A DNA stretch of 64,000 bases from Escherichia coli. GTDB lineage: Bacteria; Pseudomonadota; Gammaproteobacteria; Enterobacterales; Enterobacteriaceae. This document shows, in pieces, positions 62,266 to 64,000 of the stretch. The DNA lies in NCBI RefSeq assembly GCF_051903065.1, contig NZ_CP178438.1. One strand, given 5' to 3'. The notes beneath the pieces are model-generated. The model did no database searches, was not told the DNA's origin, and worked only from the letters and a program-made list of their open reading frames with translations. The position numbers and the translations under genes are program-made. Numbering within the stretch: position 1 is the first letter of the stretch; each line of letters opens with the position of its first letter.

Positions 62266-63873
62266 CTAAATACTTATTTTAACATCTGTATATCTTTCTT
62301 GACCTTTAAATAAACCGAATTCGATCCATTCGATATCACCTTTATCAATGTTTGCCCCTGTTAAAAAACCACCGTCAAAGTTCATTGAGTCAGGGTAGAA
62401 ATCGAAATTTTGTACCTTATCTTTCCCTTTGTATTTGACGTGTAGAAAAATCTTCAGAGCACCATCTTTTGGCAAGGTAATATTTCTGTTAGTCTCGAAT
62501 GCAATACGCCCATCATTTGTAATATAAACGTTCTTAACATCCGCTTGGCGTGGAATTATGTTTTTGTTTACGACCATCTTTTTTCCGCTGAATACAATCG
62601 AGTAGTCCAGTTTCGCCATATTCCTTTCAATTGAAAGCACCCCATAGTACTTTCCATAAGACCACTTGTTATGGTAAGGATCAAACTTGTCTCCACTCTT
62701 GGCAAGTTTAGAAAAATAGAAATCAGGTATTCTCAACTCCCTTTTCCCTTGCGAGATTTGCTTGTCGATTAAATACTTTCTAACCTCTGATTGATGGAAA
62801 GTTTCTTTGTAAGATTCATACATCCAAAGGTATTGAGGTATAAAATACAATATAACCAAAGCAAATAATGAGCATGTCAAATATTTTTGAGTTAAAGTGA
62901 AAAAAGAATCCTTTAATAAAAAAGATACAGCAATCAAAACAAGAATCAAAGTGCCATTTGCAGCCCTGGGAGGATAGGAAGGTGCTGCAAACATAATTAA
63001 GGATGTGGATAATGCTGCAAATAAGAATATCAATGCTAATGTTGTTGATTTCTTATCTGTCTTTTCGCGCAAGAGATTTATTAATGCGATAATTGTGAAA
63101 GCCAGAAATAAAGGCCACATGATGGAAATGACATCGGGCATCCTGGAGTATAAATGCTCAACTAGCCTTTCAATTAAAGGTTTAGAGTACCAGGCGCTAA
63201 AAGATTTGGCTCTTTCATAATTTCCTGGAGCGGCAATTAAGGCGATGAATCCCGCTAAAGATAATAAGGTATAGATAAGCCCTCTATGGCGTAAAGACCT
63301 AATTATATACGCATTATATAAATAATAAATGCCAGAGAGAATAACAACTACCGCGCCAGTATTTTCGTTTGAGCACCCCGCCATCACTGCGAGAATGGAG
63401 GTTAAATAGATGTTATATCTTTTTATTACGCACAATAAGTATGCGCAAATGAACATGTTTGTCCAAAGGTAATTTGCTGAACCAACAATCCAGAAAGTGG
63501 TTTGCCCTAAATTTGTATTGCTTACCCAGTAAAGCATAAAAATAGTTAATATTTTTATGCAATCGAATTTATTTATCTCTCCTGCTGAAGAACCAATAAG
63601 AAATATTAAATAAACACTTGAAGTCAATGCTAGTGAATTTGCTATTGCTCTATAAAATTCAGGAATGGAAAGCATCGCTGTGCTGGCATAATCAGCCACT
63701 ATTCTGCCACTCCAGCTCTCATAGTGCTTTAAGTGCTCAGAAATACTTAATCCCTTTAACGCGTAAAGATAATCATCTGAATGCATGGGTGTATGCATGC
63801 AAATGCTAAGAGTAATAAAAAATATTACTAACAAAGATAATGTATGTAAAAAATAACTATTTATTCTAGGCAT
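62266..63873 (-). CDS. GtrC-like polytopic membrane protein (putative serotype-specific O-antigen glucosyltransferase), 535 aa
   Basis: Visibly AT-rich ORF with multiple N-terminal hydrophobic segments and a C-terminal soluble domain; start ATG overlaps the stop of an upstream gtrB-like gene (TAATG). Confidence 0.6.
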   Translation of the reverse strand: MPRINSYFLHTLSLLVIFFITLSICMHTPMHSDDYLYALKGLSISEHLKHYESWSGRIVADYASTAMLSIPEFYRAIANSLALTSSVYLIFLIGSSAGEINKFDCIKILTIFMLYWVSNTNLGQTTFWIVGSANYLWTNMFICAYLLCVIKRYNIYLTSILAVMAGCSNENTGAVVVILSGIYYLYNAYIIRSLRHRGLIYTLLSLAGFIALIAAPGNYERAKSFSAWYSKPLIERLVEHLYSRMPDVISIMWPLFLAFTIIALINLLREKTDKKSTTLALIFLFAALSTSLIMFAAPSYPPRAANGTLILVLIAVSFLLKDSFFTLTQKYLTCSLFALVILYFIPQYLWMYESYKETFHQSEVRKYLIDKQISQGKRELRIPDFYFSKLAKSGDKFDPYHNKWSYGKYYGVLSIERNMAKLDYSIVFSGKKMVVNKNIIPRQADVKNVYITNDGRIAFETNRNITLPKDGALKIFLHVKYKGKDKVQNFDFYPDSMNFDGGFLTGANIDKGDIEWIEFGLFKGQERYTDVKISI

Positions 63874-64000
63874 TACTTATTATCCTTCAAAATATAACGA
63901 GGACGCTGCTTAACCTCGACATAAATTCTTCCTATATATTCACCCAGGACACCGATTCCGATCAACTGGATGCCTCCAAGAAACAGGGTAGAAACCAGTA
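63873..64000 (-). CDS. gtrB: GtrB-like bactoprenol (undecaprenyl-phosphate) glucosyltransferase, C-terminal end only; gene continues beyond the window
   Basis: Minus-strand translation ...[37 protein letters not shown] carries the C-terminal GEYxGRIYxxVKxRPRY motif shared by GtrB/ArnC-type polyprenyl-phosphate glycosyltransferases. Confidence 0.75.

Follow-up and report, generated by a model that had tools for sequence, protein, structure and literature searches.

Near the end of a 64,000-nucleotide stretch of Escherichia coli DNA (the window) lies an A+T-rich gene for a membrane protein of 535 residues, and its position behind the tail end of a glycosyltransferase gene raises the question of whether a phage has left its host a working system for modifying the cell surface. 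We consider it highly probable that it has, the gene being the third member of a functional gtrA-gtrB-gtrC periplasmic glucosylation system left by a lambdoid prophage at att-lambda, with activities of GtrA, GtrB and GtrC that are suggested by homology, fold, conserved residues and context. The gtrC-like gene (62266..63873, minus strand) runs through 535 codons from an ATG start to a TAG stop and encodes a polytopic GT-C glycosyltransferase of Pfam family PF19528 (DUF6056 / GT_STM0557_N). Its G+C content of 35.0%, nearly equal at the three codon positions (0.351, 0.351, 0.349), compares with 50.4% for the window and 49% for gtrB, and its product shows about nine hydropathy peaks at or above KD 1.6, as expected from the initial annotation, which had described an AT-rich polytopic open reading frame of this length. 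Only 128 bases of gtrB lie inside the window (63873..64000, minus strand), comprising the last 42 codons and stop of a GT2 bactoprenol-phosphate glucosyltransferase as read from its translation, and the remainder of gtrB and gtrA lie past the window edge. The TAA of gtrB and the ATG of gtrC share base 63873 to form TAATG. At the other end of gtrC, an intrinsic-terminator-like hairpin and T-run (62235..62258, minus strand; stem 62244-62258) probably marks the end of the gtr operon, with GGTGGCTAGGCCACC and then CTTTTTTATG at 62258-62244 on the minus strand, 8 nt past the gtrC stop, where a terminator had been claimed. As terminator-like sites are not enriched in the scan (2 found versus 2.1 expected from shuffled sequence), the terminator call rests on position, and phage epsilon34 has an annotated terminator at the equivalent position after its own gtrC.

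The genes beyond the window edge can be read from the chromosome of E. coli ECNB21-M121, which is 99.993% identical to window positions 50266-64000 (1 mismatch in 13,735 bases). In this locus (L001), a 120-aa gtrA (14522-14884) and a 305-aa gtrB (13608-14525) stand directly upstream of gtrC, and the annotation of the locus agrees with that of the window, with a GT2 gene at 13608-14525 and a DUF6056 gene at 12001-13608. GtrA matches the GtrA-like family phrog_2224 over residues 1-120 of 120 (E 8.5e-71), and Pfam GtrA_DPMS_TM is assigned to the identical gene, while GtrB matches phrog_841 over positions 2-307 of 309 (E 2.4e-164), with a PHROG GtrB match also at E 1.3e-177. The overlaps of 4 nt between gtrA and gtrB and 1 nt between gtrB and gtrC, together with these full-length profile matches, indicate a complete and tightly coupled gtrA-gtrB-gtrC operon. 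The identification of GtrB through this locus bears out the initial annotation, which had read a GtrB C-terminus overlapping the next gene through TAATG at the window edge and had expected gtrA and gtrB farther upstream; both are present at full length. At the amino acid level, GtrA is 97% identical to GtrA of coliphage Hf4s, and GtrB is 94% identical to its Hf4s and 87% identical to its epsilon34 counterpart. The gene neighbourhood is conserved in Morganella, Citrobacter, Enterobacter and one Lachnospiraceae genome, where a GT2 gene stands directly upstream. A PADLOC defence-system scan of GtrA, GtrB and GtrC gave no match.

GtrC is an uncharacterised new member of a recognised GtrC family with a GT-C fold. 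Residues 11-416 match PF19528 at positions 9-438 of 442 (E 3e-66), a family named DUF6056 in the Pfam scan performed here and GT_STM0557_N in precomputed Pfam annotations. Homologues recovered from the database numbered 147, and all among the matches listed contain PF19528. The identical protein is found on at least 99 public E. coli contigs, where it is labelled a DUF6056 family protein, and copies occur in Enterobacter hormaechei (98% identical), Morganella morganii (73%) and Citrobacter (about 45%), with remoter homologues in Aeromonas, Lachnospiraceae and an Enterococcus phage. Among sequenced phages, full-length matches are those of epsilon34 GtrC (31% identity, covering 98% of the query) and of Salmonella prophage copies (34%), and the 410-aa GtrC of Hf4s is 30% identical over the core only; the relatives with a characterised function are only about 30% identical, and none exceeds 50%. 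The NCBIfam scan assigned no family to the 535-aa protein or to the neighbouring tailspike fragment, and Pfam Glucos_trans_II, the family of Shigella-type GtrC proteins, is absent from the GtrC scan at E ≤ 10. Two further Pfam matches, to Wzy_C (E 10) and a lipoprotein-signal model (E 1.8), are not significant and were set aside as noise. One paper names DUF6056, as a domain chosen for an Enterococcus antiphage screen, and gives no usable functional result for it. The initial annotation had called the protein distinctive, which is overstated given the identical copies and the characterised members of the family. It was correct in assigning the locus to a known system class, as a gtrA, a gtrB, a variable and A+T-rich coupled third gene and a prophage location are all found; strong homology to a family outside the Gtr systems, which would have counted against that reading, was not found, and the protein instead belongs to the Gtr family PF19528, is related to the GtrC proteins of epsilon34 and Hf4s and has a GT-C fold. 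The cassette is a standard three-component Gtr glucosylation cassette, and the finding is sound but ordinary.

The predicted structure bears on whether GtrC is a glycosyltransferase at all. A very confident AlphaFold2 model built on a 121-sequence alignment (mean pLDDT 96.0, pTM 0.94) has helices up to residue 374 and is beta-rich beyond it, giving a transmembrane core at about 1-375 and a C-terminal domain at about 376-535. A fold search returned GT-C glycosyltransferases as its top 17 matches and then three GPI-transamidase subunits of GT-C fold, with polymerases and acyltransferases absent from the matches; PDB sequences yielded no match in a profile search with GtrC. The first transmembrane helix (residues 2-25) is followed directly by S32-D33-D34, which is present in 119 of the 119 sequences covering it, including those of epsilon34 and Hf4s. 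W54-S55-G56-R57 is kept in 120/120 sequences, N134-Y135, E170, R221 and R303 are invariant or nearly so across the 121-sequence alignment, and GtrC carries every invariant residue. Catalysis by GT-C enzymes such as Pmt, ArnT and PglB usually involves an acidic pair opening the first external loop, and by analogy D33-D34 would be catalytic and would lie on the corresponding side of the membrane. Position in a gtr operon is in itself no proof of glycosyltransfer, since Salmonella Typhi has a family II GtrC that acts as an acetyltransferase, and a Wzy-type polymerase, a ligase or an acyltransferase of that Salmonella kind could in principle occupy the third place; the Wzy_C match mentioned above is very weak and falls short of significance, and with the fold search led throughout by GT-C glycosyltransferases and the acidic pair typical of these enzymes conserved across the family, such an identity for GtrC is hardly credible.

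With GtrC as a glycosyltransferase, the cassette would be expected to work in three steps. GtrB, a GT2 enzyme, would transfer glucose from UDP-glucose to form undecaprenyl-phosphate-glucose on the cytoplasmic side of the membrane, GtrA would flip this lipid-linked sugar to the periplasmic side, and GtrC would move the glucose onto one specific residue within the O-antigen repeat, with catalysis by the conserved pair Asp33-Asp34, which opens the putative first periplasmic loop. Conservation in GtrC is lowest in the C-terminal beta domain (431-535), with a mean identity of 20% versus 35% in the membrane core. This divergence, and the absence of the domain from Hf4s GtrC, suggest that it is an accessory, acceptor-facing domain outside the catalytic core, which would help in acceptor selection and which, on GT-C precedent, would be placed in the periplasm.

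Glucose as the donor is suggested by the roughly 90% identity of GtrB to the GtrB proteins of phages with demonstrated glucose addition, and the O-antigen is the probable acceptor. An active cassette could instead act on enterobacterial common antigen, colanic acid, the LPS core or a protein of the periplasm or outer membrane, or could transfer a sugar other than glucose. Targets of the enzymes with the closest GT-C folds do include proteins (Pmt, STT3, PglB), lipid A (ArnT) and cell-wall glycans (AftB), and relatives of GtrC occur in Gram-positive genomes, which have no O-antigen. The lysogens of Hf4s and epsilon34, whose GtrB proteins are 94% and 87% identical to the one described here, gain O-antigen glucose, however, the characterised members of PF19528 act on O-antigen, and in several genera gtrC has an O-antigen-type tailspike as its partner, so that a different target or sugar appears very unlikely. 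The GT-C polyprenyl-phosphate-sugar transferases (Pmt1/2/4, ALG3/9/12, ArnT, AftA/B and PglB/STT3) share 5-12% sequence identity with GtrC and use other acceptors.

The cassette lies inside a 6.3-kb lambdoid remnant bounded by two exact lambda att cores, GCTTTTTTATACTAA, the first of which (attL) is at 59279..59293 on the plus strand and the second 6.3 kb downstream, past the window, at L001 15330-15344. This sequence occurs once in the window and twice in L001, with 0.01 occurrences expected by chance. In ECNB21-M121 the remnant is flanked by ybhC and ybhB, the interval between which is the classical att-lambda site. Next to attL is a 5′-truncated lambda-type integrase gene (59367..60137, minus strand) that retains 256 C-terminal codons; the Phage_integrase Pfam is assigned to the identical gene, and the annotation of L001 describes a partial tyrosine recombinase without its N-terminus. 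An IS481-family insertion sequence (60136..61342, plus strand), recognised by NCBIfam transpos_IS481 above the curated cut-off (E 4.9e-83) and delimited by 29-nt terminal inverted repeats at 60136-60164 and 61314-61342, has replaced the prophage interior. It is followed by a 5′-truncated tailspike gene (61343..62238, plus strand), which is convergent with gtrC, retains the C-terminal, receptor-binding half, and has a reading frame that opens within the inverted repeat of the insertion sequence. The fragment has no PHROG or NCBIfam match and a single weak phage match, and was identified through a Morganella morganii prophage, where a 641-aa Tail_spike_N protein is 82% identical to it over residues 343-641 and adjoins a 73%-identical gtrC. 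A second integrase, different from the first, is represented by its last 27 codons just upstream of the gtr promoter, and the stretch formed by this integrase 3′ end, the promoter, gtrA and gtrB shows 85% DNA identity to the int-gtrA-gtrB stretch of Hf4s. All of the E. coli contigs inspected contain this same remnant, an indication that it arose in one ancestral event.

This degree of decay gives weight to the main alternative, in which the genes are intact but inert, either silent in a gutted prophage or lacking a matching acceptor, and the LPS is unmodified. The prophage has been cut to 6.3 kb with both integrase and tailspike truncated, and the persistence of the same remnant in every E. 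coli copy inspected could reflect hitch-hiking in one lineage. In addition, the gtr operons of Salmonella families II and IV cause no detectable LPS change even under constitutive expression (PMC3688519), so that an intact gtr operon is no guarantee of a visible modification. Against an inert relic, all three open reading frames are full length and their profiles are covered end to end, in keeping with the earlier view of an intact cassette in a decayed prophage, and the promoter region is conserved with that of an active phage. Together with the pattern of selection on gtrC and the shared O-antigen type of its carriers, described below, these features make the inert reading improbable, and a functional cassette is preferred.

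The gtr promoter shares 85% identity with its counterpart in the active phage Hf4s and keeps the extended -10-like element TGATAGACT. Phase variation of gtr operons of the P22 type depends on a Dam/OxyR signature of four GATC sites, arranged as two pairs 13 nt apart, over three OxyR half-sites upstream of gtrA (PMC2909390). Relative to the gtrA ATG, the P22 sites are at -135, -122, -71 and -58, whereas the E. coli locus has GATC sites only at -155 and -58, and its promoter aligns with only the -58 site of P22 (one of four). The signature is absent from the gtr promoter, as a segment of about 75 nt with the other GATC sites is missing, likewise in epsilon34 and Hf4s, and Davies et al. list the epsilon34 gtr operon among those without the Dam/OxyR signature (PMC3688519). 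The phase-variable GATC sites that had been anticipated for this promoter were therefore not found in the P22-type arrangement, and the promoter sequence predicts that gtr expression would be constitutive rather than Dam/OxyR phase-variable.

Selection and mobility of gtrC can be followed across genera. Relative to the Morganella orthologue, gtrC has a dN/dS of 0.07 with dS saturated, which indicates long-term purifying selection and argues against an inert relic, but is not proof of selection within the E. coli lineage. Between E. coli and E. hormaechei, DNA identity is 99.0% for gtrC, 94% for gtrB and 75% for gtrA, and the adjacent tailspike fragments share 86% protein identity. This gradient indicates that gtrC and the tailspike fragment have recently moved onto diverged gtrAB scaffolds, and the fragment accompanies gtrC across genera. 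The locus documents the swapping of gtrC on conserved gtrAB scaffolds between genera and contributes an E. coli member to a GtrC family whose known examples are mostly from Salmonella, while the general view of how Gtr systems work is unchanged by it.

The distribution of the gene among hosts points to serogroup O38. Among 5426 complete E. coli genomes, gtrC is carried by 3 and the O38 wzy by 12, and all 3 gtrC carriers, two of which come from one study, are among those 12. In ECNB21-M121 the wzx/wzy cluster is of the O38 family and includes gne and galE, and NCTC9038 has the O38 wzy and no cassette. The O38 gene cluster is common to E. coli O38 and Shigella dysenteriae type 8. The same rare O-antigen type in all carriers is a further point against an inert relic, and the association fits a phage that combined an O38-binding tailspike with an O38-modifying gtr cassette; it may also reflect clonal descent.

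As to the product, GtrC could place glucose on O-4 of Gal or GalNAc in the O38 unit, a suggestion by analogy that we regard as somewhat less likely than not. The idea draws on three cases, with the epsilon34 linkage taken from general background. In the other two, STM0557-0559 of S. Typhimurium adds Glc alpha1-4 to Gal to give O:12-2 (PMC3688519), and Hf4s lysogens gain, by NMR, one side-chain Glc at O-4 of GalNAc. The epsilon34 protein gp20 is a GtrC of family VIII (Davies et al. 2013), for which functionality has been reported (PMC3688519), and shares 30-40% identity with STM0557 (Villafane et al., PMC2629481). Speculatively, GtrC proteins of the PF19528 type might generally be O-4 Gal/GalNAc glucosyltransferases, and if such a rule were true their products would be predictable from sequence. 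Also a little short of an even chance is the joint proposal that the cassette makes a glucosylated O38/S. dysenteriae type 8 O-antigen, constituting an undescribed O-factor absent from the O38 reference strain, and that gtrC and the matching tailspike half move together among E. coli, E. hormaechei and M. morganii. Joint movement of gtrC and tailspike would imply that an O-antigen epitope is shared and that phages pass between genera. If the cassette is active, serogroup O38 would split into glucosylated and non-glucosylated forms, which would bear on serotyping, on phage susceptibility, as the tailspike of the donor phage would lose its receptor, and on glycoconjugate design.

Among the closest known systems, epsilon34 offers a parallel with a PF19528 GtrC (gp20) that is alignable through the C-terminal domain, the same gtrA-gtrB-gtrC-terminator layout, a convergent tailspike and a promoter without the Dam/OxyR signature. 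It differs in host, being a phage of Salmonella group E and not of an O38-type E. coli, and in context, as an intact P22-like phage at argU, whereas the cassette described here belongs to a lambdoid remnant at att-lambda, where it occupies the b-region. STM0557 of Salmonella Typhimurium (GtrC family III, gtr LT2_I) is the namesake of the PF19528 entry GT_STM0557_N and is likewise chromosomal and in a prophage remnant; the Pfam name and Villafane et al. (PMC2629481) are the basis for relating it to the present GtrC. Its own operon is phase-variable through Dam/OxyR (PMC2909390), in contrast to the promoter here with one of the four GATC sites. Coliphage Hf4s, a Lederbergvirus of E. coli 4s, has a PF19528 GtrC with the conserved motifs and a gtrA-gtrB-gtrC order with a convergent tailspike, and is the closest phage match for gtrA, gtrB, the integrase 3′ end and the promoter; its GtrC differs in lacking a beta-rich C-terminal domain of about 120 residues. 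The GtrI/II/IV/V/X proteins of Shigella flexneri and YfdI of E. coli K-12 (Glucos_trans_II) fill the same role and position in the gtrABC cassettes of serotype-converting phages, and the gtrA and gtrB genes of these cassettes are about 81-83% identical to those described here at the nucleotide level, but their GtrC proteins belong to a separate family. Other O38 E. coli, DAM and ANT, carry a GtrC of the Glucos_trans_II type beside yfdH.

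Nucleotide identity between the gtr cassettes of E. coli (L001, the ECNB21-M121 locus that continues past the window end) and Enterobacter hormaechei (L016) falls from 99.0% in gtrC to 94% in gtrB and 75% in gtrA, a mosaic gradient that points to recombination break-points within the conserved gtrAB genes. In L001 the gtr promoter is directly preceded, within the lambdoid element, by the 3′ end of a second integrase gene, of which the last 27 codons remain (ending in MMQWWADWIDEKPE before the stop; L001 15038-15121, ~1.3 kb past the window end). The stretch comprising this integrase end, gtrA and gtrB is 85% identical to that of coliphage Hf4s, and the 3′ end of the original int gene seems to have been captured together with the gtr module.

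The gtrC gene is accompanied by the C-terminal half of a tailspike gene in different genera, namely E. coli (window 61343-62238), Morganella (L004 7638-9563) and E. hormaechei (L016 11636-12496), with the window copy showing 82% and 86% identity to the Morganella and Enterobacter counterparts, respectively. As the E. hormaechei gene is likewise short (286 aa), both species have the tailspike break-point close to where the head-binding part joins the receptor-binding one. In the window, an IS481-family element (60136-61342) with 29-nt terminal inverted repeats is directly flanked by the 5′-truncated tailspike gene on one side and a 5′-truncated lambda-type int on the other, and the whole prophage interior appears to have been lost through an IS-associated deletion. 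Past the window, between ybhB and bioA and adjoining the att-lambda region, a frameshifted pseudogene of an IS200/IS605-type TnpB (RNA-guided endonuclease InsQ/TnpB) is annotated at L001 16020-17136.

The host strain carries an O38-family O-antigen cluster (L009 35879-42534, equivalent to NZ_CP083585.1 1810878-1817533). The O38 wzy gene is present in only 12 of 5426 complete E. coli genomes, and all three complete genomes with this gtrC fall among those 12. Two further O38 strains, DAM and ANT, instead have a different gtr, of the YfdI type, adjoining yfdH.
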